Below are positions 2,608 through 35,999 of a stretch of DNA of 64,000 bases, in pieces. Below the pieces are notes generated by a model that ran no database searches, had not been told where the DNA came from, and saw only the letters and a list, made by a program, of their open reading frames with translations. The stretch is from Candidatus Parcubacteria bacterium (GTDB lineage Bacteria; Patescibacteriota; Patescibacteriia; CAIXNZ01), in contig JAPLYG010000008.1 of the NCBI GenBank assembly GCA_026395685.1, positions 15,225 through 79,224 on the forward strand, written 5' to 3'. Position numbers and translations under genes: made by a program. The number at the start of each line of letters is the position of its first letter. Within the stretch, counting starts at the first letter, position 1.

Positions 2608-2661
2608 AAAAGACGCAGAATGGAATCCACGCCTTTAGCAGAAACTATTAGGATGAATGCA

Positions 2662-3021
2662 CTATTTAAACATTTCATCCGTTTCGGAATCGTCCGGTGG
2701 TTCAGGGGCTGGTGGAGCTTGCATATCAATGAGAAATTGCAAGCTAACGACCTCTGCATCGTCGGCCACATCATACTTGCGAAAATACTCGAGGGAACCT
2801 TCTACGTCGATGTCCCCCATCCTCTCAAGAATCTTACGACAAATATCCAGGTCCTTATCACCCGCTATTCCGGGGAAATCCCAGTCAATCTCGTTATCAA
2901 TAACTTTACCGTCTTTTACTTCAACTGCAGGCACATGGATCCAATTGCAACCTTCTTCGCCTTGAAGTCGGTCCACGAACTCTTGCCAACGAGGATGCTC
3001 AAGGGTCATCACGCTACTCAT
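2662..3021 (-). CDS. small acidic hypothetical protein (119 aa), SD-led
   Basis: Strong SD (AAGGAGGA, 7 nt before ATG) and sigma70-like promoter on minus strand; elevated GC; overlapping plus-strand ORFs lack signals. Confidence 0.55.
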   Translation of the reverse strand: MSSVMTLEHPRWQEFVDRLQGEEGCNWIHVPAVEVKDGKVIDNEIDWDFPGIAGDKDLDICRKILERMGDIDVEGSLEYFRKYDVADDAEVVSLQFLIDMQAPPAPEPPDDSETDEMFK

Positions 3022-3074
3022 TTTTGAATCCTCCTTAGGTTATTACCAGCCAAAGATCCGAAAACCTACAAATT

Positions 3075-3124: not shown

Positions 3125-6100
3125 TTATTTTGCCTGTAAAATTATTTTGCCGTTGGATTCACTGGCTGCAAACCCGAGTTCACCAATTTTGCTGCTTCTG
3201 AACAGTTCCACTATTTTTAGAGGCAATTTTTCTTCACTAAAAACTATAGGCATTTCAATATTTTTTTTCAGGGATAAATAATGTAAAATAGTTTCTTCTT
3301 GTTTAGCAGCAGGCACATTATTAAAAAACTTCAAAACTTCCACAATCACCTTGTCTTCTTCATTTTCTTTGCTTAAATAATCAGCCGCCAAAATATAGCC
3401 CAAAACTTCCTTTGCATCCTTGTTTTTTTCCAAAAAGACATTGCTGTGATTGTCGGGAAAATTCAAACCGCCATCCTCATCATCCTCCCCCTTGCCGATT
3501 TTATCCAAAATCGTCTGTGCTTCCTCGATTTCCGCTTTATTCAATTTTTTCAGCAAAGGAGACTCGGAAAAATTATAAATAGCCAGCCCCAGCAGATGCA
3601 GGCCGTCTTTATTTTTAGTATTCTCTGGATCATGAAGCACATAACAGCTCGAGTGTTCAAAGCAATCAGAATATTTCAAGGGCCTCACAGGCTCATATAG
3701 CATATTGGGATTTTCCAGTTCCCCCGTAACCAAACCGCCGTCATCATTATAGCTGGTGCCCAAAATAACCAATTTGTCGGAAAAATGCTTTTTAAAAAAA
3801 TTATTATAGGCTTTGGCAATGGCTGGCCTGTATTTTATGCCCCGGTTGGCAATTTCAATATTATCAACGGCCAAAACAGGGAAATCACGCTTCTTATCTA
3901 AATATTTTTTGTTTGGAATTTCATCCGCCTTAAGCTTGGCTGCAACTAAAACTGACTGGGCAATCATATCTTCCTGACCATATTCATCAACCACGGAAAC
4001 CGTAAAATAAGCAGTATCTTCATGGCTCATGTATTCATAATTAATATCTGTGCCATATCTCATGCAACAGTCTGTGAAATCGCCGGCCACCCAGCCTTTA
4101 GGGTCAGACTTTCTATGAATTTGTACCACCATTTTTTTGCCCTTGATCTCATATTTATTAAGTTTTAAAATATTACGAACACTTTCTTGATCTTCTTTCG
4201 GTATTTCTTCCGCTAAATAATCTGACACTATTTTTTTACCCTGATATTTATCTTTAATAAAGCTTGCCAAATCATTGTATAATTTTTTGGCCTGGCCTGC
4301 TGGTTGCGAGCCATTAATCCCCAAATCAATCAGCTTTAACAGCAGAGCAAAAACCTGCTTATTTTCCGAATCTTTATCTATTGCCAAATCATGCTTTTCT
4401 AAAAATTCATACAGCTTTTTATATTCCTTTTTCTTGAGTAATTTTAAGAAAAAATCCCTAAATGGCGAATCAAAATTCAAATTGAAGCTTTCCTCCTTAA
4501 TATTCTGCAAATTAATAAATTTCCCGCCTTCTTTCAAAATGGCTGATTTATTTAAAGCTACCTTGCGATCATTGCTTAATCTGATTTTTGCTTTTATTTT
4601 CTCCTGTTCGCTGATTGAGCCATCAATTTGAATCGCCTGCAAGCGCGGCTCAAAATCAGCCTTAATTTTTTCTTTACGGTCTTTGTCCTGCCATTCAATT
4701 AAATCAAAAATTGAAAAGTCACCCATAATGCTCGAGATTTTTTCATTTTTGATTAACTGGCCGATTACCGGAATTATTCTTGTTAATTCCTGGCTTGGAA
4801 GCGCATTTTTTACAATTTCATTTAGCGGTGTAATTTCGTATTCTTCCCTTAGCGGCTGAATCAAAGCTTTTTCATCTAAGCCGTCTTGATTTTCCGCCTG
4901 ACGTATGATTAAACCGCTTTTGACATCACGTTCAATCAACCCGATATTAATACCCGGAGCTTTCATCTCTAATATCTTTTCAACAAGTTCCGGCGATAGA
5001 TTATCAGGTAAAATTGAACCCAAGCCGATAAGGTCGATTTGATGCTTGAATTCGGCATAGCTGGCAAAATTATAATTTTCAATATGGTGCAGATTGCGTT
5101 CTTTCCTGGATTGCTGCTGCTTGGTAAAAAGTTCCGGAGAAAACTGATTCATCATTTCATGCAGTTCAAAGGGGTTAGGCGCCTGCTTTATTAAGGTGCT
5201 GAGTATTTCAGGGCTAAAAACATTTTTTTCTTTCAGGGAATCAACGAAAAGAAGTAAATCATGGGTTGAATGGCCCCAATGCTTACTTTTAAATTCAAAA
5301 AACTTTTTAAGGCCGATAATATTTTTCAAATACTCAAAATTTGCTCTTACCTGTCCGGCCCAGACACCTGCTGATAAAATTTTTACTGCCTGTTCATATT
5401 TGGCTTCCGAGGATAAATTTTTGAAAGTTTCCTGCTGATCCTTAATCGCGACAAATTCAGACCCGTTTACACCCAAGTCCTGGGCTAATTTCAGTAAATC
5501 ATCGGTAATTTTTCCAAATGATTCAATATTTTTAGACACAAAGTCAGCTGGCATATCCCAAGAATGCACTCCGTGTTCCAACAATTTAAGTGCAACCTCA
5601 TTATTTAAATGCTTGAATAATTCAAAGTTTTTTACTACCAATGCAATATTTCCATTTTTGATTGATATCAATGCGACTTTATTATGGTCTAAACCCTGAA
5701 ATTTTTCAAAATGAGCTATTATGTACGTTTCATTCATTCGCCGCTCAATAAGCAGATAGGCAATTTCCTGATCCAATGGACCCTGAAATTTGGGTAACAA
5801 TTCCGCAAATGTCCGTAAATTATCATTCTCGATTAACTTGAGAGCAAGGTCATTATCAAAAACCAAGCCCTGGAAGGTTCCCGGCTCTTTAATTGACCAA
5901 TGAGCATTGTGGCTTTCAATTAATTTAATTGCCACATCAGCATCAAGGCCTGTAAAGGACTTATAATAATTATCAACAACCCCGCCTTTTCCCGCTTCAA
6001 TCAATTTAAGAGCTACCTCTTTATCTAAAGAATCTTTAAACCGTGAAATATTATTTTGTAATGTTTCAATTTCTCCCAATTCAATTAATTTAAGGGCAAT

Positions 6101-7183
6101 TTCCTTATCAAAACCAACATTTTCAATGAGGAAATTATTGCTTAACACCTTTTTGCTCTGGCCCACCTCAATCATTTTAATAATTACCTCCTTATCAAGC
6201 CCCCGAAACCTAGCAATGTTATCCAGCAGTATCTCTGGCCTTTTGGCTTCAATAATTTTTAAAGCTATGCTTTTGTCTAAGGTGAAATTTTTAAATCTTT
6301 CCGGATGACCAACCACATACCAAATTTGACCGGATTCTATAAGCTTAAGCGCAAAATCTTTATCTAAACTATCAAATTTATCAAGAATTTTTTCTAGATC
6401 GTAAGCGGCAAACATACCCTTTACCAGCTCCCAGGCAACTTCATTATCCAGGCCGGAAAATATCTCCAGGTTCTTTACTATGGCCGATTTCTGATTATTC
6501 TGAATTAATTTAAGTGCTACATTTTTATCTAAATCTTTAAAGCTTTTAATATGTTCGGCTACCTTACTGCTATGCCCGTCTTCAATCAATTTAAGAGCGA
6601 TTTCTTTTTCAAGTCCGTTTAATTTATTCAGATACCAGCTTAAATCATAACTTCTGCCGGCTGCTATCATCTCTTTAGCGATTTCATTATGGCTAACACC
6701 ATCAAAAAACTTGAATTCCTTAAATAATGTATGGTAACAGGCTCCAGTTTTAATTAATTTAAAAGCAAGATCCTTTTTATCCAAGTCGCGAAATAGTGAA
6801 TCCAGATGTGAAGTCACATATATATCCAAATCGCTTTCAATAAGTTTATAGGCTATGCGCTTTAAATCCACATTTTTATAACTTCTAAGATCCTTTAATA
6901 ATTCATTAATATAGCGCCTTTTCTCAATCATCTTAAAAAAGACTTGCTCGTCCAAGCCACTAAAATAAGAAGCACGGTTTAAAATCAAAGACTCCTGATT
7001 ATGTTCAATCAGTTTGAGCGCAATTTTTTTATGAAATTCGGGCAAAATGTCTTTTAACTGTTCTAAATGAAATCTTTCCCCGGCTTCTATCTGCTTAATA
7101 ATTTGATCAACTGTCGGCTTTTTAAGAGCCGGCTCTTCAATATTATTATTTCCGCCAGCTGGGGGCTCTTCAATTTTTGGCAT
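3125..7183 (-). CDS. giant repeat protein (1352 aa): ~38-aa helical repeat array + C-terminal conserved domain with DCCM motif
   Basis: Long uninterrupted ORF; >15 repeats of pattern F.GLD.E.A.KLIE.G....V..N...F; C-terminal region homologous to 7197..11480 (SDPxxxxxGDxTxCCM). Confidence 0.8.
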   Translation of the reverse strand: MPKIEEPPAGGNNNIEEPALKKPTVDQIIKQIEAGERFHLEQLKDILPEFHKKIALKLIEHNQESLILNRASYFSGLDEQVFFKMIEKRRYINELLKDLRSYKNVDLKRIAYKLIESDLDIYVTSHLDSLFRDLDKKDLAFKLIKTGACYHTLFKEFKFFDGVSHNEIAKEMIAAGRSYDLSWYLNKLNGLEKEIALKLIEDGHSSKVAEHIKSFKDLDKNVALKLIQNNQKSAIVKNLEIFSGLDNEVAWELVKGMFAAYDLEKILDKFDSLDKDFALKLIESGQIWYVVGHPERFKNFTLDKSIALKIIEAKRPEILLDNIARFRGLDKEVIIKMIEVGQSKKVLSNNFLIENVGFDKEIALKLIELGEIETLQNNISRFKDSLDKEVALKLIEAGKGGVVDNYYKSFTGLDADVAIKLIESHNAHWSIKEPGTFQGLVFDNDLALKLIENDNLRTFAELLPKFQGPLDQEIAYLLIERRMNETYIIAHFEKFQGLDHNKVALISIKNGNIALVVKNFELFKHLNNEVALKLLEHGVHSWDMPADFVSKNIESFGKITDDLLKLAQDLGVNGSEFVAIKDQQETFKNLSSEAKYEQAVKILSAGVWAGQVRANFEYLKNIIGLKKFFEFKSKHWGHSTHDLLLFVDSLKEKNVFSPEILSTLIKQAPNPFELHEMMNQFSPELFTKQQQSRKERNLHHIENYNFASYAEFKHQIDLIGLGSILPDNLSPELVEKILEMKAPGINIGLIERDVKSGLIIRQAENQDGLDEKALIQPLREEYEITPLNEIVKNALPSQELTRIIPVIGQLIKNEKISSIMGDFSIFDLIEWQDKDRKEKIKADFEPRLQAIQIDGSISEQEKIKAKIRLSNDRKVALNKSAILKEGGKFINLQNIKEESFNLNFDSPFRDFFLKLLKKKEYKKLYEFLEKHDLAIDKDSENKQVFALLLKLIDLGINGSQPAGQAKKLYNDLASFIKDKYQGKKIVSDYLAEEIPKEDQESVRNILKLNKYEIKGKKMVVQIHRKSDPKGWVAGDFTDCCMRYGTDINYEYMSHEDTAYFTVSVVDEYGQEDMIAQSVLVAAKLKADEIPNKKYLDKKRDFPVLAVDNIEIANRGIKYRPAIAKAYNNFFKKHFSDKLVILGTSYNDDGGLVTGELENPNMLYEPVRPLKYSDCFEHSSCYVLHDPENTKNKDGLHLLGLAIYNFSESPLLKKLNKAEIEEAQTILDKIGKGEDDEDGGLNFPDNHSNVFLEKNKDAKEVLGYILAADYLSKENEEDKVIVEVLKFFNNVPAAKQEETILHYLSLKKNIEMPIVFSEEKLPLKIVELFRSSKIGELGFAASESNGKIILQAK

Positions 7184-7196
7184 AAATATAACTTTA

Positions 7197-10100
7197 TTAT
7201 TTTTTTATCTTCCTGAGTTCCAAACGATGGAATGTCTCGCCTGCTTCTTTCATTTTGGTATCAACTGCTATTTCATAATTATACTGGCCTGCATATTTCA
7301 TAATAATCGGATAAGATGTTGTTTCCCGGCACCTCATCACAATCGGCATTTTATTTAATTTATCATCATTTTCAATTTTTTTCATTAAACCCCAGGCCAG
7401 TTCCATTCCCACCCCTGTTTTCTGTTTGTCCGGATCTACCGCAATATCATGAAAATATATTTTTGTTTCATCCCTGCCTGGTTCTTTTGCCAAATAACCC
7501 AAAACATAGCCGTCTAAAACGCCAGCGTCAGTAAAATGACCTAGCGTCAGAGCATTTGTTTTTTCCTGTTCAGCTTGGAGATTGGAAGCAGTTAATATTT
7601 TCTGCATTGTCGTTATACCTTCAACTAAGGCGGGATTAGAGCCGTATATTTTTTCTTCCAGATAAGCGACCGGAAAAGTATCGCGCCAGCTGATATCCTG
7701 AATGCCAATTCTTTTAGCGCTGTCTTTTGGGGCACCTTCGGGTAATAATTCCAGACATTTGTCATGCAGATTATCAGAATAGCTGATTAGAGCCTGCGGT
7801 AAAAATTCATTGGGCGGTGTTGTTTTAATATTCTTTAAATAATCCAGATATCCCAGGCCAATAACAACTCTGCTATTTTCCATGCCCAATTGCTTTCGAT
7901 ACTCGTCAAAAAAGGCTTTATAAATAACCGATATAATGCTTTCATCATTTTTAATCAGGCGCTGGACCAGATTATTCTGGCCTTCGACATTATCGCAGGC
8001 AATTACATTTTGGCTGTTATAAAATTTTTCCAAAAAATCAGGTCCTAGTGTTTCTTGCAGATTTACCTCTCCGTGTAATCTTAAATCTGTGACTAATTTT
8101 TCAAATTTTTCTTTGCCTATTCCCTTATCCAGGGTCATAATGCTCTGGACTACGATTCTGGCTTCTTCAGGCGACTGGCCTGGCTGGCGGAAGCTCAAAG
8201 TCATGGCTCCGCATTGCGGGGAAAATAAATATACATTTTGTTTACCCGAGCCAAACGGCATACAGCAGGATGTGTCATCCCCGATTGTGGCATAGCGCGG
8301 ATCGCTGTGCGGCAAAATTTCCGCCCTCATAATTATTTCTTCTCCGCTATATTTCAGGCGGTGATCTTCAATGACTGCTTTCATATCTTCAATTAATATC
8401 TTCTGTTCTTCTGGTATTAAATTCTTAACTTCAAATTTTTCCCGTTTAGACTTAATTTTTTTAGCTAAAAATTCCGCCTTAATATCCTTACTCTCCAAAA
8501 TTTGCCGCCAAACTTTTTTAAGATCGTCTTTATCCTTTATTTGTGTTATTTGTTCCAATAAAGCCTCCGAATTATCGCCGAACTTTTTGCCGCTGACAAG
8601 CCCGGCTGCCCGTTCCTGAGTGTATTTTTTTAATTCCTCAAAATCCAAATTTTCAATTATTTTAAAAACTTCCAGGGACTTATTTAAGTCTGCGCTTAAA
8701 TACTGATTGCTGTCTGCCAAATATACTGTGATAAACTTTTCTAAGTTTCCTTCAATCTGCTTGGCTAAATGATCCAATTCTTTTTCTTTGTCCCTGGCCT
8801 CTTTGTTTTTCAAAATCATTGTATAATCTTTGCTATACGGTTTAAATGGTGACATTGTATCAATCTGCCCCTCAACTAACGCTTTAACAATATCCTCGGG
8901 TCTCAAAGCTATCGTATAATATCCGTCTCCCAATTCAGCCCACTGATTGGGCTCCAGTTCTGACTGCAGCTTCTTATTGGCATGGCTATCAGGCAGCTGT
9001 AAAAATCTCTCGGCATCAGTAAACAACATTAATGCCGGCCCCATACCCACTGTCGGATGGGCTATCAGTTTATTGGCATATTCATAAAGCTTGGGATTAC
9101 TTTCCTGCAAGTTATTTAAGGCTTCCTGCATTCTAGGGGTCATTTTTCTTCTCAGCTCCACTTTTTTTCTGAAAGTCTTTACATTTTTAAACCAGCCTTC
9201 TTTTTCAAATTCTTCCCGCCAGCCGGGCTGGAAATTTTTTACCGCATTAACCAAAAGCTGACGGCTATCCATGCCTTCAATACTTACAGCCGAATCCGAC
9301 GCAGTCTGAAGCAGTATATTTTTAAGTTCTTCCTTATTAGTAACTATTTGAAAAAGGTCGGGCAAAAAATACAAAGCATCATGGCGGTCACTGCCTTTGA
9401 TATATTTCCAGGCATTTTCCGTACCGATTAAAGAGGCAAGCTCTTTAAACCAGGCGCATATTTCCCTGTCCCAAATATACCCCGGATTATTTAAAAGAAA
9501 CTCAGCCACCTTATTGACTCTGTTTTTTTTATTTAGTTTTGAAAGCTCATCATAGTGCTCATTAATTTCCCAAAACTCCTTGTGTTCCAAGCCCAAATCT
9601 TTATAATAATTATATTTTTCTAAATTTAATGAAACTTTCTTTTCCTGGCAAAATTTTACCACCTTGTCAGCGCTGGGCATTTCAGCTAAAAGCGCCTCAA
9701 GAATTAACTGGTAATCTCCTCCTTTTAAACCGGTAAATTTTTCCAAATCATCAGCCACCGCCGGCCCCATACCATTATGAATAAGTGCCAAGGCAATCAT
9801 TCTATGATCCAAATCCACAAATTTATGTAAATTATCAAGAACTGTTGTTTCGAAATTTTTTATTATCAATGCTATGGCCACTTCATTATCCAAACCCTTA
9901 AAATAATCAAACTCGAAACTAAGGACCTCCGGAAGGTTAGCATTTATAAAAGCCAAAGCAACATCCTTATCCATTCCCTCAAATTTCGTTAAATTGTCTG
10001 CAACAGCCTTGCCTTGACCATTGGCAATAAGTCTAATAGCCATTGCCTTGTTATTCAGGCCGGGAAATCTATCTATTAGAGTGGCTACTGTATACCCTTC

Positions 10101-11480
10101 ACCGACCTCAATAATCTTATCGGCTATTTCCGCAGGGTCAATATCGCTAAATTTTTCTAAATGTATTACCACAGCAGCACTCTGACCTGCTTCAATCAAT
10201 TTGAAAGCTACCACTTTATCTAAATTATTAAATTTTCCTAAAAATCTTGCTACCAAATCTGCTCTATTTGCCTCAATTATCTTCAGAACTATTTCCTTAT
10301 GATCTAGCCCGATAAAGATGCCTAAATTGAAAATTAATGCATGAGGCCCATCAGCTACTTCAATAATTTTCAGGGCAATCTCACGATCTAAATCTTTAAA
10401 GTCCTCTAAATATCGCACAACCATGAAACCTTTTCCTTGCTCAAAAAGCATTAAAGCGATTTTTTTATAATCCAACTCTTTAAATTTTTTCAAATTCCTG
10501 ACAAGGGCAGAACTCCCAACAAGAGAAGAGCTCACATTATCCTGCATAATAAGCGCCTCAGCAACTTGCTGATAATTAACACCGTTAAATATATCCGGAT
10601 TCTCGGCGACCGGGATCTCCAGTCCTTCTTTAATTAATTTCAACGCTGTTTCATTATCCAGTTCATGAAACCTTCTTAAATATCCTTTTTCAGCGATATA
10701 AGTTTTTCCGCCTCGTACGTTTAATAAAGCTAATAATATTTGTTTGTGGCTGGCTGGATCAAATGCCTCAATTCTTCTTACCACATCTTCTGCCTTGTTA
10801 TTATTAATTAATTCTATGGCAATTTCCTTATGATTTAAACCTCTGAAATTCCCAAGATAGTTAGCCACATTCTCGCCCTCCCCTCTTTTTATAAGTTCTG
10901 AGGCAATTTCCTGATGATCCAACCCTATAAATTTCCCGAGATTTTGAGCCAGACTCCTGCCCTTACCGCTATCAATAAGTTTTGTGGCGACTTCTTTATG
11001 ATCAATTCCTTTAAACTTTTCTAAATAATCAGCAACAAACTCACCGCCTCCATACTCAAACATGGCCCAGACTATTTTCTGATAGTCCAGCCCCTTAAAT
11101 TCTTCTAAATTTGCAGCAACATCTTTACTTCTTCCAGCCTTAATAAGCAGCAACGCAATTTCTTGGTGAGCATGCCCTTCAAGCTTATCCAAATTATTAA
11201 TAATCACAATGGGCCTAATCTTCCAAATAAGACCGGAAATAATATCCCTAGTATTTTTTCCTTTATTATCCTTTATATATTTATCTAATACTTCTTCCTC
11301 CTGCTTTAGAGCTCTTAATTCTTCAACATATATATTATATTCAACTGGGTATTTTTCTTTCAGCTGAGCAGGCGTCAGCTTGTAGTCTTCCTCAGCAATA
11401 TCAAAAGGAACTCCTTTTTTAAATTTCAGAGCTTGATTTTCAAATTCTTCTTCTGATTTTAGATGTTTGAATTCAGGCAT
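7197..11480 (-). CDS. giant repeat protein paralog (1427 aa) with same repeat array, CCM-motif domain and C-terminal GNAT-like segment
   Basis: Same ~38-aa repeats (FKGLDYQKI..KLIE.G), shared SDPRYATIGDDTSCCMPFG motif, C-terminus IYFHDIAVDPDKQKTGVGMELAWGL resembles GNAT motif A. Confidence 0.8.
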   Translation of the reverse strand: MPEFKHLKSEEEFENQALKFKKGVPFDIAEEDYKLTPAQLKEKYPVEYNIYVEELRALKQEEEVLDKYIKDNKGKNTRDIISGLIWKIRPIVIINNLDKLEGHAHQEIALLLIKAGRSKDVAANLEEFKGLDYQKIVWAMFEYGGGEFVADYLEKFKGIDHKEVATKLIDSGKGRSLAQNLGKFIGLDHQEIASELIKRGEGENVANYLGNFRGLNHKEIAIELINNNKAEDVVRRIEAFDPASHKQILLALLNVRGGKTYIAEKGYLRRFHELDNETALKLIKEGLEIPVAENPDIFNGVNYQQVAEALIMQDNVSSSLVGSSALVRNLKKFKELDYKKIALMLFEQGKGFMVVRYLEDFKDLDREIALKIIEVADGPHALIFNLGIFIGLDHKEIVLKIIEANRADLVARFLGKFNNLDKVVAFKLIEAGQSAAVVIHLEKFSDIDPAEIADKIIEVGEGYTVATLIDRFPGLNNKAMAIRLIANGQGKAVADNLTKFEGMDKDVALAFINANLPEVLSFEFDYFKGLDNEVAIALIIKNFETTVLDNLHKFVDLDHRMIALALIHNGMGPAVADDLEKFTGLKGGDYQLILEALLAEMPSADKVVKFCQEKKVSLNLEKYNYYKDLGLEHKEFWEINEHYDELSKLNKKNRVNKVAEFLLNNPGYIWDREICAWFKELASLIGTENAWKYIKGSDRHDALYFLPDLFQIVTNKEELKNILLQTASDSAVSIEGMDSRQLLVNAVKNFQPGWREEFEKEGWFKNVKTFRKKVELRRKMTPRMQEALNNLQESNPKLYEYANKLIAHPTVGMGPALMLFTDAERFLQLPDSHANKKLQSELEPNQWAELGDGYYTIALRPEDIVKALVEGQIDTMSPFKPYSKDYTMILKNKEARDKEKELDHLAKQIEGNLEKFITVYLADSNQYLSADLNKSLEVFKIIENLDFEELKKYTQERAAGLVSGKKFGDNSEALLEQITQIKDKDDLKKVWRQILESKDIKAEFLAKKIKSKREKFEVKNLIPEEQKILIEDMKAVIEDHRLKYSGEEIIMRAEILPHSDPRYATIGDDTSCCMPFGSGKQNVYLFSPQCGAMTLSFRQPGQSPEEARIVVQSIMTLDKGIGKEKFEKLVTDLRLHGEVNLQETLGPDFLEKFYNSQNVIACDNVEGQNNLVQRLIKNDESIISVIYKAFFDEYRKQLGMENSRVVIGLGYLDYLKNIKTTPPNEFLPQALISYSDNLHDKCLELLPEGAPKDSAKRIGIQDISWRDTFPVAYLEEKIYGSNPALVEGITTMQKILTASNLQAEQEKTNALTLGHFTDAGVLDGYVLGYLAKEPGRDETKIYFHDIAVDPDKQKTGVGMELAWGLMKKIENDDKLNKMPIVMRCRETTSYPIIMKYAGQYNYEIAVDTKMKEAGETFHRLELRKIKK

Positions 11481-26282: not shown

Positions 26283-28001
26283 ATGGTATTTAAAAAACCA
26301 CACATTCCCCATCGCGAGGGAAATTATTCAAAAGAACCCAAATTACGCATCATGGTTTTGGGCGGGCTGGAAGAAGTCGGCCGCAACATGACTGTTTTAG
26401 AATTTGGCAATGACATTATTATTGTTGACATGGGCCTGATGTTTCCCGAAGAAGACATGCCGGGCATTGATTATATTATTCCCAATATCTCCTACTTTAA
26501 AGGTAAGGAAAAAAATATTCGCGGCGTAATTATTACTCATAGCCACATGGATCATATCGGCGGCATTCCTCACATAATGCCCAAAATCGGCAATCCCATT
26601 ATTTATACCGCCAAATTATCAGCCGGTATTATTCAAAAAAGGCAGGAGGAATATAAGTCAGCTCCAAAACTCAAATTTTACATCATTGATGAAAACACCC
26701 ATTTGAAACTGGGAAATTTCAATGTAGAATTTTTCCGAGTTAATCATAATGTGCCTGACAGCTTTGGCGTTGTGATCAAAACTCCGATCGGAACTATTGT
26801 GCATACCGGAGATTTTAAAATTGATCATTCCCCTATTAATGACAAGCCTGCTGACCTGGGCCGCATTGCTCAAATCGGCTCCCAGGGAGTCTTGGCTTTA
26901 ATGGCTGATTCCACTGATGCCGAACATGAAGGCTATCAGATTTCTGAAGCCAGAGTCGGCGAAGAATTGGAAGGTATTTTTGAAAAAGCGACCAACCGCA
27001 TTATTATCGGCACGTTTGCTTCACTCTTAAATCGCGTTCAGCAAGTTATTACTATCGCTGAAAAATTCGGACGCAAAGTTATGATTGAAGGCCGCAGCAT
27101 GACAACCAATGTAGAAATTGCCCATCAGCTCGGCTATATGAAAATCAAGCCAGGCACTTTATTGGAAGCAGAACATTATAATGAAAAAAAATATCCTGAT
27201 GATAAAATTGTGATTATCGGCTCCGGCGCTCAAGGTGAACAAAATGCCTTTTTAGTACGCTTTGCAGAAGATGAACATCGTTTTTTGCATATTAAAGAGG
27301 GCGATACTGTTATTTTTAGTTCCTCGGTTATTCCCGGCAATGAACGCACGATTCAAAATTTAAAGGATACTTTTTATCGCAAAGGCGCCAGAGTTATCCA
27401 TTACAAACTTATGGATGTTCATGCCGGCGGACACGCCAAAAAAGAAGATTTAAAACTATTGATCCGTTTAATCAAGCCTAAATATTATTTTCCGATCGAA
27501 GCCAACCATTATATGCTGCGCTTAAATGGCGAAATTGCGGAAAGTTTGGGAATACCCAAGGATCATATTTTTATTGCTGAAAATGGACAAGTAGTAGAAT
27601 TTACCCACAATGCCGGACACTTAACCCCGGAAAAAGTCCCGACCGATTATGTAATGGTGGACGGACTGGGAGTCGGCGATGTATCAGATATTGTTTTGCG
27701 TGATCGTCGGGTCATGGCTGCTGACGGCATGATTGTAATTATTGCCACCATTGATCGTAAAACCGGAAATATAATCGGCAATCCTGATATTATTTCCCGC
27801 GGTTTTGTTTATATGAAAGAAAATAAAGAATTGATTGAAACGACCAGAATGAAAGCCAAAAAAATATGCGGAGACACCGATCCTAAATCACCGGCTTTCG
27901 ATGATTATATTAAAAATAAAATCCGCGATGATATTGGCCAGTATCTCTATATTAAAACCAAACGACGACCCATGATTTTACCCGTAGTAATTAAAGTCTA
28001 A
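26283..28001 (+). CDS. rnj: ribonuclease J (metallo-beta-lactamase/beta-CASP)
   Basis: ITHSHMDHIGGIP, beta-CASP motifs, 572 aa. Confidence 0.9.
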   Translation: MVFKKPHIPHREGNYSKEPKLRIMVLGGLEEVGRNMTVLEFGNDIIIVDMGLMFPEEDMPGIDYIIPNISYFKGKEKNIRGVIITHSHMDHIGGIPHIMPKIGNPIIYTAKLSAGIIQKRQEEYKSAPKLKFYIIDENTHLKLGNFNVEFFRVNHNVPDSFGVVIKTPIGTIVHTGDFKIDHSPINDKPADLGRIAQIGSQGVLALMADSTDAEHEGYQISEARVGEELEGIFEKATNRIIIGTFASLLNRVQQVITIAEKFGRKVMIEGRSMTTNVEIAHQLGYMKIKPGTLLEAEHYNEKKYPDDKIVIIGSGAQGEQNAFLVRFAEDEHRFLHIKEGDTVIFSSSVIPGNERTIQNLKDTFYRKGARVIHYKLMDVHAGGHAKKEDLKLLIRLIKPKYYFPIEANHYMLRLNGEIAESLGIPKDHIFIAENGQVVEFTHNAGHLTPEKVPTDYVMVDGLGVGDVSDIVLRDRRVMAADGMIVIIATIDRKTGNIIGNPDIISRGFVYMKENKELIETTRMKAKKICGDTDPKSPAFDDYIKNKIRDDIGQYLYIKTKRRPMILPVVIKV

Positions 28002-28149
28002 GACATAAATATTCCTAAAAAATTCCCCCTAATATGGGGAATTTTTTAATTATTAGTAGATTAGTATGGTATTAGTAAATTAGTAGCCTAACTAAACCGA
28101 AGCAATGCCCTAAAACCCTTTATTCTTAGCCAAAACCAGCCACTCAGCA

Positions 28150-28178
28150 TTGACAAAATCAAGTATTTATGCTAATAT
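28150..28178 (+). promoter_or_regulatory. promoter P1 TTGACA-N17-(TG)CTAATAT for GC-rich block gene A
   Basis: Perfect -35, 17-nt spacer, extended -10; same architecture at 30652 and 33386. Confidence 0.55.
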
Positions 28179-28359
28179 TCCCTATTAAAGTAATTATTTA
28201 AGCTATTGAAATAAGGTAATAATTGTTATCTTATTTTAGTAGCTTATTGCTGCTGAATTTGCGAAGGGAGAAACAATACCCTTTTCACATAGATAAAGTG
28301 TTTTTCAGACAAAGAACTTTGACAACTTTACGCATAACAACCAAAAAGGAAGGTGAAAG

Positions 28360-29838
28360 ATGGATAGGAAAAACCTGACGGAAGTGATTCCGGGAGTATT
28401 GTATGACACCACCGTAGGGGATGATTCTCCGCTGCTTTTCAAGACCCAACCCGACGTCCTGTACGACGATGAGGGCCTGGAAATCAGCATCATCGTTGGC
28501 GACTTTGAACTCAAGTGTAAAAGCGAAGAGTTCAACAATAAAACACAGCTCAATTTCCACGAACCACAGGAGCTGCAAGCCAACCTGACGACGATCCTTA
28601 CATCGATCGTTTTCAGTAACAACGCCGAAGACAGCGACCCAACGTGGAAGTACGTGAGTAAAGGAATGGTCGGGGAAATCAAAGGAACTGCCGCGTCCAC
28701 GGCCAAAGAAACCGAGGATGCCGCGCCCATTCCCATGCCCCCCCTGATTGCGGAGGAAAAACCCGAGGCCATTCCCGCTCCACCCGCCGACGAGGAAAAA
28801 AAACCTGAGCCGGCAAAAGACCCGGAACCGCCAAAGCCCTGGGACGAGGAAGAAGAATTTGAGGACTTTCCCGATTTCCCCGTTGACGAGGGGAAAAAAC
28901 CCGAGCCTGAAAAAGCTCCGGAATTCCCAAGGCCCGGGGAAGAAGAAGATCCTTTCCGTTTTGATGTACGAGAACCCGAGCCTGAAAGAGCGCCAATACC
29001 GCCGCGACCCAGGGAAGACTGGGATCGCCCCGCGGATGAAACAGACGATGACATTTTAAGCCATCGCCGCCCACTTCCCCGACGGGAAGAACCGCCTGAA
29101 GAGGAGGCACCGATGAAACGAGGGATTCTCACTTACATTTTGGCGGCAATCGGGATCATCCTGATTTCCGCAATGCTGATTCTTCTGGGTCTCTTTCTCG
29201 GAACCTGGTGGGGTCAAGCCGACATTGACCGCCTGAAGGCCGACAACGGGAAACTCCAGCAGGAGATGAAGGGACTGAAAGCCCTGAATCCGCAAATCAA
29301 AAAGCTGCAGGAGGACATAGTCATTCTTCAGCAGGATAACCGGCTCTACAAGCTGAAAGCGGACCGCTACAGCCAGATTCTCACGAAACTGCTGTGGCCT
29401 ATTCCCGATGACTCGGAGCTGCAAAACTTCGATGTCAACAATAATTTCTGCGCTAACTGGTGCCAGTGGTTGAAGGAGAGCCTTCCCCTGGTTCGCCAGG
29501 ACGCGAAGGCCAACTGTCCGGCATGTTCCAAGCCGGTTGTGCAATCTAGCCGCAACACGAACGTAAAAAAGGCAGTTGCGGCTTGCCCGACTTGCCCGCC
29601 GGCCACTTGCACGAATTGTGTGGAAAGGGATAAAATCTATCCGACGACTCCGCAACAAGTACAGACCCCACCGGAACAAGTGCAGTCCCCGCCGCCACCG
29701 CAGCCTCAACCGGCTACGGAAAACGGTCCGAGGACAAAAGTTTACCCCGGAACTCCGGCGCCCGGTCCTGTCCAACAGGCAAACGCTCCGGCTCCGGAAT
29801 CCAACACCACCGTCAGAACACAAACTATCGACCCCTGA
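28360..29838 (+). CDS. GC-rich bitopic membrane protein: cytoplasmic N-domain with Pro/Glu-rich PEP repeats, TM, coiled coil, Cys-rich region, Pro-rich tail ending TQTIDP
   Basis: 492 aa; TM GILTYILAAIGIILISAMLILLGLF; codon GC3 much higher than neighbours; antisense ORFs are artefacts of high GC. Confidence 0.7.
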   Translation: MDRKNLTEVIPGVLYDTTVGDDSPLLFKTQPDVLYDDEGLEISIIVGDFELKCKSEEFNNKTQLNFHEPQELQANLTTILTSIVFSNNAEDSDPTWKYVSKGMVGEIKGTAASTAKETEDAAPIPMPPLIAEEKPEAIPAPPADEEKKPEPAKDPEPPKPWDEEEEFEDFPDFPVDEGKKPEPEKAPEFPRPGEEEDPFRFDVREPEPERAPIPPRPREDWDRPADETDDDILSHRRPLPRREEPPEEEAPMKRGILTYILAAIGIILISAMLILLGLFLGTWWGQADIDRLKADNGKLQQEMKGLKALNPQIKKLQEDIVILQQDNRLYKLKADRYSQILTKLLWPIPDDSELQNFDVNNNFCANWCQWLKESLPLVRQDAKANCPACSKPVVQSSRNTNVKKAVAACPTCPPATCTNCVERDKIYPTTPQQVQTPPEQVQSPPPPQPQPATENGPRTKVYPGTPAPGPVQQANAPAPESNTTVRTQTIDP

Positions 29839-29876
29839 TCCCTTTAAGGGACAACTTCTTTCACAAGGAGAAAGAA

Positions 29877-30590
29877 ATGAAGAAATTTTTCTACGGCATC
29901 GTAATTCTGATGATCATCGGCTTCGTGTTCCCGGCTCTGGCTGACAGCAATGTCCCGAGCAGGGAATCCAACACGCCGATGGCCTTCCCCACGAAACCGA
30001 CCGTCACCTGGGGAGCGAACAACTACCTGAACGTGGCTCTCCCCGAAAACCCGAGCGTTCCCCTGGTGTTCGGCTACAACGGGAATGGATTTCCCGGCGG
30101 CACCAACTGGCAGATCACGGAAAAGCAAAACTCGCCGAGCGAGCCCCTGCTTTTCACCGTGGAAGTCCAGCTTCCGGGCAGCGCCTACACCGGCCTGACC
30201 CCGAGCATGCTGATCAACACCAGCAAAGCGAACGAGGGCGAAAGATCCGGAATCAACCCCTGGTCTTCCGCCGCCGGCCTGCCTGACAAAGCGCAGTGCC
30301 GGGTCAAAGACGGTCGCTTCCAGTGTCGCTCCGGCTGGGCTGGACAATGGGAAGACGTCAAGATGCCCAATGCCAATTCCGAGGACATCGTCATCTACGA
30401 GCGCGACGTCCCCGACCCCGAGCATCCCAGCCGGGTCGGTGGCAAACTCTGGGTGATCTACAACACCAAGACTGGTGAGACCATCGTGATTTATCCCAAC
30501 ATCACGGGCCTCTACCGTACCATCCGATACGGATTTGCCGCAACCGGCGGAACCATTCTGCTGTGCTTCGTGGCTTTCTTTGTCATTTGA
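29877..30590 (+). CDS. GC-rich secreted protein with MKKFF signal peptide and C-terminal hydrophobic anchor (GG-TILLCFVAFFVI)
   Basis: SD AAGGAG 6 nt upstream; signal peptide MKKFFYGIVILMIIGFVFPALA; 39-nt gap from gene A suggests co-transcription. Confidence 0.65.
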   Translation: MKKFFYGIVILMIIGFVFPALADSNVPSRESNTPMAFPTKPTVTWGANNYLNVALPENPSVPLVFGYNGNGFPGGTNWQITEKQNSPSEPLLFTVEVQLPGSAYTGLTPSMLINTSKANEGERSGINPWSSAAGLPDKAQCRVKDGRFQCRSGWAGQWEDVKMPNANSEDIVIYERDVPDPEHPSRVGGKLWVIYNTKTGETIVIYPNITGLYRTIRYGFAATGGTILLCFVAFFVI

Positions 30591-30604
30591 ACACAAATGA
30601 ATAC

Positions 30605-30641
30605 AAGCCGAGTATGCCTTTAAGGCAGCTCGGCTTTTTTA
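30605..30641 (+). terminator. rho-independent terminator after gene B
   Basis: AAGCCGAG...CTCGGCTT + T6. Confidence 0.65.
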
Positions 30642-30651
30642 TTTCAATTTA

Positions 30652-30680
30652 TTGACAAAAGTTATAGAATCTGCTAATAT
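30652..30680 (+). promoter_or_regulatory. promoter P2 TTGACA-N17-(TG)CTAATAT
   Basis: Same architecture as P1/P4. Confidence 0.55.
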
Positions 30681-30768
30681 CTTATATTAAACTATAAATT
30701 ATAGTTACTACGTACATTTATAAAATTTTAACCCTAAACACTTCCCTACGGGGAGCAAAGGAGTCAAG

Positions 30769-31467
30769 ATGAAGAAATTCTTTGTGATCATGTTTTTGCT
30801 GGTAGTAGGCTTTACGGTCTTGGCTCAGGCCGAGCCGGCACAGCCTCCGCCTGCGAGCAACCAGCCGGGCGTACTGCCCAATGTTAATGTCATTGTCCCT
30901 CCCTACTTATGGATTGATAACTTTGTAACCGGGGAAAATGGCATTCTGGAACACCATGTTGCCAACCTGAGACTTATTCAGGAATGGCTGCGTGATAATC
31001 CCTCCGACATTGCTGCTTTGATCGGCATGGTCTCTGACCTGAAAATCAGAGGCTATTGCTACTACAATTATTCAACAGGCTTTTATAGTCTGAAGTACAA
31101 TCAAGCCGGCAGTACTGTCAATCAGGGAGATCGAGTCTGCCAGGAAGCCCTGTCGCTCAGCCGGGCAATTTCCATCCGCAACTGGTTGCTTACGCCGCAA
31201 AACTGGCTAAAAGACAAACAGGGCAATCCCATTAAAATTGATGAGTTCCGTATCAGAATCCTGGATGTGAAAGCTCTGGGATTACGCGGGGGCGGCAACT
31301 TTCCCAACCAGTCAGTCGCTGTCTGGATGCTGTCTTTTAATCAGGCAAAGCAAGGTCCTGGCATTCTGACGCTGACGCAGGGCCCTCCTGCGCCCGTGCC
31401 AACGCCCGAGATAGCTCCTCGCAGGCGACCCAAGACAACGATCTATACTCAGAAAATTGACCCTTGA
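30769..31467 (+). CDS. GC-rich secreted protein with MKKFF signal peptide, Pro-rich tail ending YTQKIDP
   Basis: SD AAAGGAG; signal peptide MKKFFVIMFLLVVGFTVLAQA; C-terminus shares TQxIDP with gene A. Confidence 0.7.
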   Translation: MKKFFVIMFLLVVGFTVLAQAEPAQPPPASNQPGVLPNVNVIVPPYLWIDNFVTGENGILEHHVANLRLIQEWLRDNPSDIAALIGMVSDLKIRGYCYYNYSTGFYSLKYNQAGSTVNQGDRVCQEALSLSRAISIRNWLLTPQNWLKDKQGNPIKIDEFRIRILDVKALGLRGGGNFPNQSVAVWMLSFNQAKQGPGILTLTQGPPAPVPTPEIAPRRRPKTTIYTQKIDP

Positions 31468-31477
31468 TTTAAAATCA

Positions 31478-31510
31478 ACCGGGCAGTGAGTTTTCACTCG
31501 CCCGGTTTTT
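31478..31510 (+). terminator. rho-independent terminator after gene C
   Basis: CCGGGCAGTGAG..TCACTCGCCCGG + T5. Confidence 0.6.
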
Positions 31511-31836
31511 CTTTTCTAAATATTTGCTAAAATATTATTCGCACGGTATATTGCAACTATATGATAGGTAAGTATGCTTTTTACATTCTAATTTTGGCTA
31601 ACTTAGGATAATCCCTTAAAATATTGACTTTTTATAAAGCAAATGATAAACTCCCATATCAAGTAAGAATAAGCTTTTTAAAAGAATTCATTTGTCTAAA
31701 TTGATTCTTTCAAGCAGCTTAAAAGCTGTTGAGAATAATAGGTTGAGTTTTTTCCATAAACCAAAAGTGTTTTGTTATTTCACAAAAATTCTCCCTCACG
31801 GGAGACTAGATTTCCCTGAAGGGAAAGGAGGATCAA

Positions 31837-33183
31837 GTGATGATCAGAAATAAGATGACCTTGCTCTTGCTTTGGATCAGTTTTTTTGCCATTGGCGCCT
31901 CCGGGCAGTTCAACTGCATTGACGGTGATGTGCACGAAGGTGATAAAAACTACTATGGCGATCGTGATCCTGACGGCGACGGTTATAATAACCGAGTTGA
32001 TTGCAGTGATCAGGATCCCAATCGTTGGGTATTCATCATTGCATATCCTGACCATGATGGTGACGCTATGCCTGAACAAGGCCCGACCATTAATATCTGC
32101 TCCGGCACTACAACTCATGCCCCTGCGGGCTGGACTTTCAATGACTCACCAATGGATCCCTGCCCCAATGATCCCGAGAACATCTGCGGGGTAACAGTTC
32201 CATTTTGCCAGCTCGCTGGCGTTGCCAATGGCCATACGACTACCCTAACTGCCACAGCTACTTACACCAATGGCTCCTTTGACCGAGTGATTTTCTACGC
32301 AGGAAATATGGTGGTCAAAACTGATACCACTCCAGCTGACGGCTGGACTGCTATCCTAACCAATGTCCCCAACGGTGTTTACACCTACCATGCCATTGCC
32401 TTTGCCACTGACGGCAATTCTGCCTTGTCTAACTTTGTTACCATTACCATCAATGACACTGGCGCTTGTATGCCGACACTGACCATCACATGGGCTTATG
32501 CCATTGCTCCTGAGAAAACCTACTATGGTGGCTGGTTTGGTTCTTGCTTTACCAGCATTTTCGGACAAGATCCCTGGTGGCAGTTTGGACCGTTTAGCAG
32601 CTGCCATGAATGCAGCCAATCCGGCGTAGTTTTTCCCGGTAGTTTGAATTTGGGCTTTTGCGAATTCAGTGGCACTGTGCCCAGAAGCCTGAACGAAAAT
32701 CCAACAGCGCCCTTTACCACCGATCGCGGTGATATTGTGGACTATTTCATTACCGGCTATCCTGACGGACACATTTATAATGGCTTGGCTCCTGGATCGC
32801 CGGCAGCTTACTTCGACAACTGTGCCAGTATTATTCAGCTCTCAGTAGCTCAGATAAATCATCCGTGGGGTGCCAACTATTTCATTGCCTTTACTGCCCC
32901 GCTGGCAGGTAATACGGCTAATATCTTCGTTACCTCGCCGATTGACTCTGATAGTGACGGCTGGATGAATGCTTGTCCTCCCAACACAACTTGTCAGGCG
33001 GATAACTGTATCCGTTTTGAAAATCAGACCCAGCTGGATTCAAACAGCGATGGAGTCGGTGATGCCTGTACTGCCAATCCTGACCCGAATTTTTGGGATC
33101 AAGATAATGACTGGTACTTGGACGGACCCAATGTTGCGGAATCTGATCGGGATCATTACCCGACTGATAGAACCCGGCATTAA
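31837..33183 (+). CDS. secreted Ca-binding protein with thrombospondin type-3-like Asp-rich repeats and Ig-like domain (paralog D, moderate GC3)
   Basis: Signal peptide; DPDGDGYNNRVDCSDQD, DSDSDGWMNACP, DSNSDGVGDAC motifs; SD AAGGAGG; ends PTDRTRH. Confidence 0.8.
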   Translation: MMIRNKMTLLLLWISFFAIGASGQFNCIDGDVHEGDKNYYGDRDPDGDGYNNRVDCSDQDPNRWVFIIAYPDHDGDAMPEQGPTINICSGTTTHAPAGWTFNDSPMDPCPNDPENICGVTVPFCQLAGVANGHTTTLTATATYTNGSFDRVIFYAGNMVVKTDTTPADGWTAILTNVPNGVYTYHAIAFATDGNSALSNFVTITINDTGACMPTLTITWAYAIAPEKTYYGGWFGSCFTSIFGQDPWWQFGPFSSCHECSQSGVVFPGSLNLGFCEFSGTVPRSLNENPTAPFTTDRGDIVDYFITGYPDGHIYNGLAPGSPAAYFDNCASIIQLSVAQINHPWGANYFIAFTAPLAGNTANIFVTSPIDSDSDGWMNACPPNTTCQADNCIRFENQTQLDSNSDGVGDACTANPDPNFWDQDNDWYLDGPNVAESDRDHYPTDRTRH

Positions 33184-33196
33184 ATTTTAACTATTA

Positions 33197-33237
33197 CGGG
33201 CTGCGACTTAGACACATCTAAGCCAGCCCGTTTTTTT
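33197..33237 (+). terminator. rho-independent terminator after paralog D
   Basis: CGGGCTG-CGACTTAGACACATCTAAG-CCAGCCCG + T7; near-identical copy after paralog E. Confidence 0.7.
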
Positions 33238-33385
33238 ATTGAAAAAAGATCTCCAAAAATTACATTTCTTACCCTTTTATCCCTGTCTGCGAAATTACCC
33301 ATAAATACGCCTAAAACCACATTTTTAAAATTGCTTATTTTAGCTAATTTTACCCTAATTCTAGCCAAAATAAAACATCAACCTC

Positions 33386-33414
33386 TTGACATTTGCAAAA
33401 AAATATGCTAATAT
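33386..33414 (+). promoter_or_regulatory. promoter P4 TTGACA-N17-(TG)CTAATAT for paralog E
   Basis: Same architecture as P1/P2. Confidence 0.55.
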
Positions 33415-33660
33415 ACCCTATTAAACTAATCTTAGATAAAAGCCGAATTTAAGCTATTAAAAAGAGTTATATAATAATTAATTCTTTTTAGCAGCTTAAT
33501 AAGCTGTTTTGGATATTTAGAGAAATAAAAGCATGGACTTTAACTCCTGCTTATTGACATAGATGGTTAAGCATTTTTGGATAAAGGAATTTGTTTTTTG
33601 ACAACACCCTACTCTCCCCCAAAGGAGACGATTTTCCCCGCGGGGGAAAAGGAGAATACC

Positions 33661-35001: not shown

Positions 35002-35014
35002 AACTTGACTACAA

Positions 35015-35056
35015 ACGGGTTGCGACTTAGACAAATCTAAGCCAGCCCGTTTTTTA
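35015..35056 (+). terminator. rho-independent terminator after paralog E
   Basis: Same CGACTTAGACA(A/C)ATCTAAGCCAGCCCG hairpin as after D. Confidence 0.7.
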
Positions 35057-35311
35057 TTTATACGAATATTATTTTATATACAACGAATGGCAGATTAATC
35101 ATCTTAATTAACCTTGCGCAGAGTATCCTTATAAAATGTAATAGGTGAAGCTTTATTATGCGAATATTATTTTTATACTGCGAATAACTGATTTTGAAAT
35201 ACTCTTCCAATTACCAATGCCTAATGCCCAATACCAAATTACAGTCTATTTACAGCCAGAGTATAATTAAGTAGAATTAATATATTGTATATACTGGTAA
35301 CCAATCAAACC

Positions 35312-35340
35312 TTGACAAAACGCTAAAATTATAGTAAAAT
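35312..35340 (+). promoter_or_regulatory. putative promoter TTGACA-N17-TAAAAT for rnpB
   Basis: Located ~35 nt upstream of the predicted RNase P RNA 5' end. Confidence 0.45.
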
Positions 35341-35371
35341 ATCCATATAACTGAACACTATTGTTCAGTAG

Positions 35372-35968
35372 CTAAATATCCAAACAAGCAGATGATCACC
35401 CCTCCGAAGCTTTAGCAAAGGAGGGGAGGAAAGTCCGGACTTTATGCCCTGCTCCGCACCGGAGATTCTAAATCCAAAAATCCTAAATCTTAAACATTTT
35501 TTAATTTTGTTATTTGAACATTTGAATTTGTTTGAAATTTGGTGCTTGAGATTTGGTGCTTCCGTTGCGGAGCAACGGTAAGGGTAACGGGTAACGCCCG
35601 CCCGTTTAATAGCAATATTAAATGAGGACCAGTGCCACAGAGACAATTCTAGCGAGTCCCGCTTTGCGGGGCGGGGTTGACTCGGCGGCTTATAAGCCGC
35701 CTCGCCAAAGGTGAAAAGTATCTCGATGTTTTTTGTTCTCGAGACAAAAGGCTACGAGAATCGGCCTCTGGCAACAGAGTGTCCGCGGTAAACTCTACCT
35801 AAAGCAAGGACAAACCCACCCCAGCGCAAGCAACGGTGGTGACAAGTAGTCCGCTAGAGCTCGGCAGCAATGCCCAGCCCAGATAGATGATCATCCTTCG
35901 ACAACCTCAGGATAATCTCCTGATAAGTCGAGGACAAAATCCGGCTTATAGTTTGTTTGGATATTCAG
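35372..35968 (+). ncRNA. rnpB: RNase P RNA (bacterial type A) with large AT-rich insertion
   Basis: GGAGGGGAGGAAAGUCCGG (P4), GGGUAACGCCCGCCC, GACCAGUGCCACAGAGAC, AAGGUGAAA, ACAAAAUCCGGCUUAUAG match universally conserved RNase P RNA regions in order; P1 pairing AUAUCCAAACAA/UUGUUUGGAUAU. Confidence 0.85.
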
Positions 35969-35999
35969 CTATAATTTTAAATTTATAAAATATTCTATT

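Follow-up and report, generated by a model that had tools for sequence, protein, structure and literature searches.

A Patescibacteria protein family with exchangeable helical repeats and a C-terminal MID-CCM-GNAT core whose GNAT signature is intact in one of two adjacent genes and degenerate in the other

The GNAT superfamily (Naa10/Ard1, Naa50, RimI, AANAT) is the closest known relative of the tail of one of two large proteins, encoded by gene A and gene B, in a 64,000-nucleotide stretch of DNA from a Candidatus Parcubacteria bacterium. This whole stretch was analysed and is called the window. The canonical GNAT motif A is Q/R-x-x-G-x-G/A; it lies between beta4 and alpha3 and forms the acyl-CoA pyrophosphate loop. 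NatA consists of a helical-repeat scaffold, Naa15, and a catalytic GNAT subunit, Naa10. In tandem-GNAT enzymes and effectors, which include the mycothiol synthase MshD, N-myristoyltransferase, Eis and Legionella VipF, the inactive half shapes the acceptor site.

The proteins of gene A and gene B are soluble and modular and belong to one family centred on Patescibacteria (the Candidate Phyla Radiation, CPR), with a C-terminal core of the domains MID, CCM and GNAT. The family joins an exchangeable alpha-solenoid to this fixed core. Gene B has an intact GNAT signature, whereas that of gene A is degenerate. Like NatA, gene B has a long helical-repeat scaffold and a Naa10-like GNAT, although this is an analogy only. 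Unlike NatA, it is a single chain, and its repeat of 28 amino acids (aa) is unrelated to TPR. As in the tandem-GNAT proteins, an alpha/beta domain (CCM) stands directly upstream of an active-looking GNAT, and its element order is compatible with a degenerate GNAT-like half. Unlike those proteins, CCM has no P-loop, its invariant residues (Cys, DNxE, YSD) form a set of their own, and a CCM-like domain also occurs alone.

The two genes, as defined by open reading frame (ORF) calls, NCBI protein matches (100% for gene B, to a metagenome-assembled genome [MAG] protein) and domain hidden Markov models (HMMs), are as follows.

3125..7183, minus strand: gene A, 1352 aa (NTZ49_01840), with ~18 repeats of 28 aa, a partial MID, a linker, a CCM domain and a degenerate GNAT-like tail
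7197..11480, minus strand: gene B, 1427 aa (NTZ49_01845), with an N-terminal region, ~18 repeats of 28 aa, MID, a linker, a CCM domain and an intact GNAT

A first-pass annotation, made from the letters of this DNA, had described two adjoining minus-strand genes of 1352 and 1427 aa, and both coordinates and lengths proved exact. Both proteins are identical to consecutive NCBI entries titled "MAG: hypothetical protein" (NTZ49_01840 and NTZ49_01845, Candidatus Parcubacteria bacterium) on one 83-kb contig. The gap between the genes is 13 nucleotides and both lie on the minus strand; gene A and gene B are therefore probably co-transcribed.

The GNAT and CCM domains

The C-terminal regions of gene A, gene B and 16 homologues were aligned (alignment A1). 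For comparison across species, one genome per GTDB species (185,579 species representatives) was scanned with a peptide pattern, which yields a lower bound. The scan found 101 loci; the family is sporadic and present in at least ~100 of the 185,579 species representatives. We kept 80 loci for comparison of the CCM domain and the domain order, 75 for the GNAT columns and 81 for gene neighbours.

7203..7688, minus strand: GNAT-fold domain of gene B (aa 1265-1426)
7407..7424, minus strand: motif A of gene B, QKTGVG (aa 1353-1358), the presumed acyl-CoA pyrophosphate-binding loop
3146..3571, minus strand: degenerate GNAT-like tail of gene A (aa 1205-1346), from alignment A1 and a per-column comparison with 75 loci

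Judged from its model, the last domain of gene B is a GNAT fold. It spans the last ~165 residues, and Foldseek gave Naa10/Ard1 (E 7e-9, target TM-score [TMt] 0.74), Naa50, Naa60, RimI and PaiA as the top matches. N-terminal acetyltransferases (NATs), AANAT and EctA scored alike, so the fold ranking does not separate substrate classes. The family profile weakly matched AAC(3)-I (E 0.003) and Naa10 (E 0.04), and since these matches fall at profile positions 267-348, the last domain is the matching one. QKTGVG of gene B fits the canonical motif A and comes after IYFHDIAVD, a beta4-like segment. GNAT matches in Pfam at E <= 0.01 were obtained for 4 of the 18 aligned tails. Two relatives with the same tail, P0043 and P0044, pass PF00583 with 45.8 bits. 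Within this very well-known superfamily, the gene B GNAT is divergent.

Conservation in this domain is strong. E14, Y64, D84, R124 and T127 occur in all 75 loci, S128 and Y129 are conserved as well, and gene B has every one of them. In the numbering of the gene B protein, invariant residues present are E1275, D1345, R1385, T1388 and Y1390. Compared with the 75 loci, gene A has E14 replaced by N, D84 by K, A86 by F, R124 by E, T127 by L, S128 by P and Y129 by L, with Y64 kept. It reads KQEETI where motif A aligns, its tail has no Pfam GNAT match, and it lacks both motif A and the set of core residues. The GNAT of gene A, read from its sequence, is clearly degenerate. The motif-A-like segment noted at first in the second gene is thus real (QKTGVG in a GNAT fold), whereas a GNAT shared by both genes holds in outline only, as gene A has lost motif A. 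A well-characterised housekeeping enzyme is matched at the level of the superfamily, by fold, but no specific housekeeping family is matched, and there is no known counterpart of CCM, MID or the repeat.

The CCM domain lies directly upstream of the GNAT.

7692..8339, minus strand: CCM domain of gene B (aa 1048-1263), ~215 aa, alpha/beta, from alignments A1 and A3 and an AlphaFold2 model
8259..8306, minus strand: CCM motif of gene B, SDPRYATIGDDTSCCM (aa 1059-1074)
3584..4141, minus strand: CCM domain of gene A (aa 1015-1200), containing the motif SDPKGWVAGDFTDCCM
4061-4108, minus strand: CCM motif of gene A, SDPKGWVAGDFTDCCM (aa 1026-1041)

The AlphaFold2 model of gene B aa 1030-1427 had a mean predicted local distance difference test score (pLDDT) of 83.5 and a predicted TM-score (pTM) of 0.82, and it contains two alpha/beta domains. 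In the model, the order of elements in the CCM domain is beta-alpha-beta-beta-[insert]-beta-alpha-beta-beta-beta. The pattern SDPxxxxxGDxTxCCM, which the first-pass annotation had seen in both proteins, is present in both at the positions listed. It had been taken as part of a joint module with the GNAT; the motif belongs instead to a separate domain upstream of the GNAT. The impression that this module is not a recognised one was borne out, as family scans and phmmer and profile searches of PDB sequences found no Pfam, NCBIfam or PDB relative of the CCM domain.

Residues of the CCM domain are numbered from gene B aa 1045. C29 is found in 79/80 loci, as are Q68 and S69, with many other residues similarly kept. 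D119, E122, Y143, N180 and D192 are found in 80/80. The invariants are a Cys, D-N-x-E, Q-S, Y and Y-S-D, and the core set is kept in both gene A and gene B. In gene B the invariant Cys is C1073, DNVE supplies D1163 and E1166, and YSD supplies S1235 and D1236. In several relatives Ser takes the place of the first cysteine of "CC", so that only the second is invariant.

A CCM-like domain also occurs in another protein context. The type-2 head "LYLGNYCPCCICID...VIDNIEAN" aligns to the CCM domain with the motifs in register, and it ends the protein with no GNAT after it. Type-3 tails (ADACW...RGxNPxEN) were compared as further candidate relatives of CCM and found no support (hhalign probability 0.2%). 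Type-3 and type-2 tails matched each other weakly (hhalign probability 9%, E 0.0036). Because of these weak type-3 results, we refrain from placing all heads in one superfamily.

The C-terminal regions of gene A and gene B are ~20-26% identical (alignment A1), and BLASTP aligned them with E 1.3e-5 over 112 aa. Gene A belongs to a subfamily with the pattern "GWVxG[DN][FY]TDCCM" (P0028, P0042-P0044), to which the loci L064 and L069-L080 belong by domain pattern, that is, no MID match and a split CCM match. Elsewhere, this subfamily has a bona fide GNAT. Given the low identity and the two subfamilies, gene A and gene B did not arise by recent tandem duplication. The nearest relatives of gene A and of gene B are not in tandem. 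The description of the genes as tandem paralogs with a homologous ~400-aa C-terminal region is right as to homology, with the two members in different subfamilies.

One homologue of gene A, P0028 (1297 aa), has Trp at every position where the family has Gly, as in "IEKWDWESV" and in "WKWEDDWDGW" compared with "GKGEDDEDGG" of gene A. The most likely source of P0028 is an organism that uses code 25 (UGA = Gly; Gracilibacteria, SR1 or Absconditabacteria) and whose genes were translated with UGA as Trp.

The MID domain, the repeat array and the family

8838..9536, minus strand: MID domain of gene B (aa 649-881), all-alpha
5225..5401, minus strand: partial MID of gene A (aa 595-653), containing THDLLLF, the first quarter of MID only
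9726..11195, minus strand: repeat array of gene B (aa 96-585), two-helix units of 28 aa
5570..7033, minus strand: repeat array of gene A (aa 51-538), more diverged units of 27-29 aa

MID has an invariant H-D (RHDALYF in gene B) and later invariant His and Asp residues. In gene B it was modelled by AlphaFold2 at pLDDT 80-95, and a charged linker of low confidence separates it from the CCM domain. It gave no structural match, and a profile search of PDB sequences gave nothing significant. The partial MID of gene A matched a MID HMM built without gene A (independent E-value 1.9e-5), and the BLASTP alignment to gene B spans this segment.

The repeats of gene B have the consensus NLxKFxGLDhxEIAxKLIExGxGxxVA. 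A repeat HMM was built from the very regular repeats of the homologue P0002 (consensus NLDKFSGLDHKEIALKLIEAGxGxxVA). It gave 16 matches in gene B (independent E-values down to 1e-12) and 18 in gene A. The period was determined by BLOSUM autocorrelation against 300 shuffles. Gene B peaked at lag 28 (z = 12.9), with further peaks at 56 and 84; gene A peaked at lags 27-29 (z 4.5-6.6), 56 and 84 (z 7.5). At lag 38, z was about 0 for both. The first-pass annotation thus found the right motif (F.GLD.E.A.KLIE.G) and copy number, as there are 16-18 copies per protein, far above chance and in line with the >15 it gave; its ~38-aa unit was mistaken, as the units are 27-29 aa. The relatives P0036-P0039 have another repeat, judged by eye at roughly 38-39 aa, which the genes of this window lack.

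An AlphaFold2 model covering the last three to four units of gene B has one helix of 9-10 residues and one of 5-6 residues per unit (pLDDT >87). TRF found no DNA-level tandem repeat in the two genes, which indicates that the arrays are old and diverged and not an assembly artefact. Likeness to PPR, HEAT/ARM, TPR and ankyrin repeats, whose periods are 33-47 aa, is generic and structural only. With 28 aa and two helices, the repeat agrees in neither profile nor period with the known helical repeat families (HEAT, ARM, TPR, PPR, ANK, Sel1), and no Pfam repeat model matched gene A or gene B at E <= 1. In P0002, four unrelated Pfam models scored above their whole-sequence cut-offs: Sigma70_r4_2 (42.6 bits, cut-off 25.7), GIPC1_GH2 (33.1, cut-off 27), ACCA (29.8, cut-off 23) and NgoMIV_restric (28.7, cut-off 23.2). 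Since no single stretch of P0002 passes alone, we read them as summed low-level matches on the repeats.

An N-terminal motif, "F.[IL].EED.KLT..ELKEKYGE.KY..Y..EL", stands ahead of the repeats at about aa 18-48 of gene B (window ~11340-11430). It is also found in P0006, whose tail is of another type, and in P0042, the orthologue of gene A, and is absent from gene A.

An HMMER scan of 1.84 billion cluster representatives with alignment A1 found 771 clusters at E < 1e-3 and 371 at E < 1e-30. The core is nearly always at the C-terminus of proteins of 1000-2500 aa, with extremes of 7703 aa and of stand-alone proteins of ~400-450 aa. The order MID-CCM-GNAT is fixed at the C-terminus wherever MID was detected (68/80 loci), and the rest have CCM-GNAT. 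Several paralogues per genome occur in this window and in two further cases (L029 with L064, L039 with L052). Only about a quarter of the loci have the 28-aa repeat ahead of the core; the others have different repeats or none. Conversely, the 28-aa array is joined to other C-terminal heads in other proteins (homologues P0002-P0034).

At least four other kinds of module are fused to the array, none with a Pfam or PDB relative. Two of them are the "LYLGNYCPCCICID...VIDNIEAN" tail related to CCM and a large family of tails reading "SGHIADACWASKY...RGLNPIEN...TNRP...FNGYDI". The others are the tails found in P0009 and P0020 and, in P0022 and P0024, a "WCT...GDF.VYY" domain at the N-terminus that is followed by C-terminal repeats. 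The 28-aa array seems to be a scaffold in general use in CPR, to which different heads are attached. We make no claim for the tails of P0009, which is kinase-like by eye, and P0014, as neither has a relative among PDB sequences.

Record titles are overwhelmingly from CPR phyla: Buchanan-, Magasanik-, Morani-, Wolfe-, Sacchari-, Kerfeld-, Gracili-, SR1, Peri-/Peregrini-, Nomura-, Uhr-, Komeili-, Doudna-, Berkel- and Falkowbacteria. Eleven loci (L005, L009, L013, L014, L024, L027, L030, L061, L067, L068 and L077) carry unconfirmed titles of Bdellovibrionota/Bdellovibrionales, "uncultured Gammaproteobacteria" and, in one case, Nanoarchaeota. L009 and L060, both titled Gammaproteobacteria and likewise unconfirmed, bear the CPR-type 28-aa repeat. 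If the non-CPR titles are right, the family is common to CPR and to other predatory or host-dependent lineages. We found no description of this family in the CPR literature searched. The 28-aa repeat, MID, CCM and their fixed combination appear to be undescribed, with no Pfam models and nothing in that literature.

Gene context

The genes flanking gene A and gene B in the window are housekeeping genes, namely those for QueA, a CCA-adding enzyme, an RluD-type pseudouridine synthase, cytidylate kinase (Cmk), ribosomal protein L19 and UvrA. No family of neighbours was common to more than 4 of the 81 loci.

Directly downstream of gene A lies a minus-strand ORF of 119 aa (2662-3021), which overlaps a plus-strand ORF of 135 aa (2620-3027); neither has a Pfam match. 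The best sigma-70-like site of the scanned region, TTGACA-17-TATTAT with an extended TG, lies upstream of the 119-aa ORF (minus strand, 3103-3075). A terminator-like hairpin lies on the other side of this ORF (minus strand, 2636-2609).

Window positions 28000-36000 form a compositional island with a GC content of 0.47-0.50, compared with 0.34-0.41 elsewhere in the window. Long ORFs overlap on both strands in the island, for example 28360-29838 (plus) with 28305-29132 (minus) and 33577-35001 (plus) with 33517-35034 (minus). One of six tested island ORFs had a Pfam match, to the bacterial Ig-like domain Big_7. The island may consist of acquired surface-protein genes.

Among the homologous loci, L015 and L016 (JAAZJX010000069.1) have the same 8.6-kb sequence, with a truncated family member, at both ends of a 58.6-kb Magasanikiibacteriota contig in opposite orientation. 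Either the contig has a terminal inverted duplication or the second copy is an artefact of assembly.

Proposed function and alternative explanations

We consider it probable, though well short of certain, that gene A and gene B belong to a modular family in which gene B would be an acyltransferase and gene A a non-acetylating protein. The gene B GNAT, to judge from its conserved residues, would be an acyl-CoA-dependent N-acyltransferase that is most likely active. The solenoid of gene B would bind a macromolecular partner or substrate. The CCM domain would either form the site for the acceptor substrate, which in tandem-GNAT enzymes is the part played by the inactive N-terminal half, or carry out a cysteine-dependent second step. 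Gene A, which belongs to a different, older subfamily, keeps CCM and has lost the acyl-CoA-binding and catalytic GNAT signature. It is probably a non-acetylating paralogue that would serve as a binding or regulatory protein or act via CCM alone. The proposal of a repeat scaffold with an acyltransferase-like domain therefore fits gene B, by fold and motif A and with its activity as a prediction; the GNAT of gene A is degenerate.

Several results weigh against this explanation. Gene B falls under the PF00583 gathering score of 20.7 bits, with 16.6 bits for the full protein and 19.1 for the tail. Its score with the RimI model TIGR01575 is 16.9 bits, compared with an equivalog cut-off of 86.4. Most family members have I, M or V, not G/A, as the sixth residue of motif A. 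The CCM motif falls partly in a low-confidence loop (model residues 38-50, pLDDT <50). The CCM domain has no profile similarity to its own GNAT tail (hhalign probability 0.4%), and no tandem-GNAT PDB chain aligned over both tail domains of gene B, the longest PDB alignment being 178 residues. The acceptor-site role of CCM is thus drawn only from position and element order. A CCM-like domain also occurs without GNAT, in type-2 tails (hhalign probability 68%, E 4.8e-5), which favours a function of its own.

An alternative explanation is that the proteins are effectors or toxins, secreted or delivered by contact, in which the solenoid would target a host protein and the GNAT, perhaps with CCM, would modify it as part of an episymbiotic lifestyle. 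The family has its centre in CPR phyla, a group regarded as host-dependent, and some record titles, unconfirmed, name Bdellovibrionota, which are predators. Several paralogues per genome and a sporadic, not universal, distribution also fit an effector, as does the shuffling of scaffolds and heads, which is known from polymorphic effectors. The arrangement would be analogous to repeat-plus-enzyme effectors of Legionella or to GNAT toxins. The Legionella effector VipF has been described as a tandem-GNAT acetyltransferase effector (PMC10936415).

However, signal and secretion features, which the first-pass annotation had proposed to check, were looked for in both proteins, and no signal peptide, transmembrane segment or recognisable secretion or trafficking domain was found (Pfam, hydropathy). 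Neither protein has a hydrophobic N-terminus or a 19-residue stretch with a Kyte-Doolittle mean >1.5, so no signal peptide or transmembrane segment is predicted, and both proteins are probably cytoplasmic. As the route of protein delivery in CPR is not known, the absent signal is weak evidence against an effector. There was no PADLOC match and no relevant PHROG match (one meaningless PHROG). With no neighbour kept in more than 4 of the 81 loci, there is no immunity-like partner of at least 100 aa, and the neighbours in the window are housekeeping genes. Of the features of polymorphic toxins and secreted effectors, only head and scaffold shuffling was seen. The host-interaction or effector role suggested by the first-pass annotation finds no direct support, and we consider it unlikely.

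It is a decidedly unlikely further reading that CCM is an unrecognised enzyme domain that would act with the GNAT in a two-step, cysteine-mediated acyl transfer, which the exchangeable solenoid would direct to a host protein or a partner protein. Type-2 tails would then be stand-alone versions of the domain, as might type-3 tails. If this is true, CPR bacteria would have a protein-modification system of their own that bears on the episymbiotic lifestyle.

A housekeeping N-terminal acetyltransferase directed at the ribosome or at proteins, either a single-chain NatA analogue or an elaborated RimI, would fit the top Foldseek matches and the local neighbours. This is very unlikely when set against the patchy distribution and the non-conserved gene context.

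That gene A and gene B are purely structural or adaptor solenoids with non-catalytic relics as C-terminal domains is highly improbable. The degenerate GNAT of gene A and the sub-threshold Pfam score of gene B are in its favour; however, the polar CCM and GNAT residues are under strong purifying conservation over 75-80 distant loci, gene B included, and motif A of gene B is intact.

A penicillin-binding or class A beta-lactamase-like CCM domain, with the GDxT...C strand as KTG and YSDN as SDN, is effectively refuted: the marginal matches of the stretch "SDPxxxVAGNDTACCMPFGSGKNNVYMFNP" to the KTG strand of the NMC-A, SME-1 and IMI carbapenemases (NCBIfam E 0.005, PDB phmmer E 0.33, profile searches E 0.018 and 0.005) and the resemblance of YSDN to their "LQYSDN" are put down to chance or convergence, because the order of SxxK, SDN and KTG is not found, the motif order being reversed, SxxK absent and the fold different.

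In the explanation that we favour, with gene B as a predicted acyltransferase and gene A as a non-acetylating paralogue, the domain boundaries, the invariant residues and the contrast between an intact and a degenerate GNAT are now defined, and gene B aa ~1030-1427 forms the tail unit. Three parts of the family (the 28-aa repeat, MID and CCM) have no Pfam model and no solved relative. CPR bacteria have small genomes and are thought to be host-dependent, and here a small CPR genome devotes 8.3 kb to two proteins of a family that has hundreds of clusters and no name. Should the substrate be a protein of the host or of the ribosome, the family would amount to a protein-acylation system specific to the lineage; otherwise, it would be a divergent GNAT with accessory domains.

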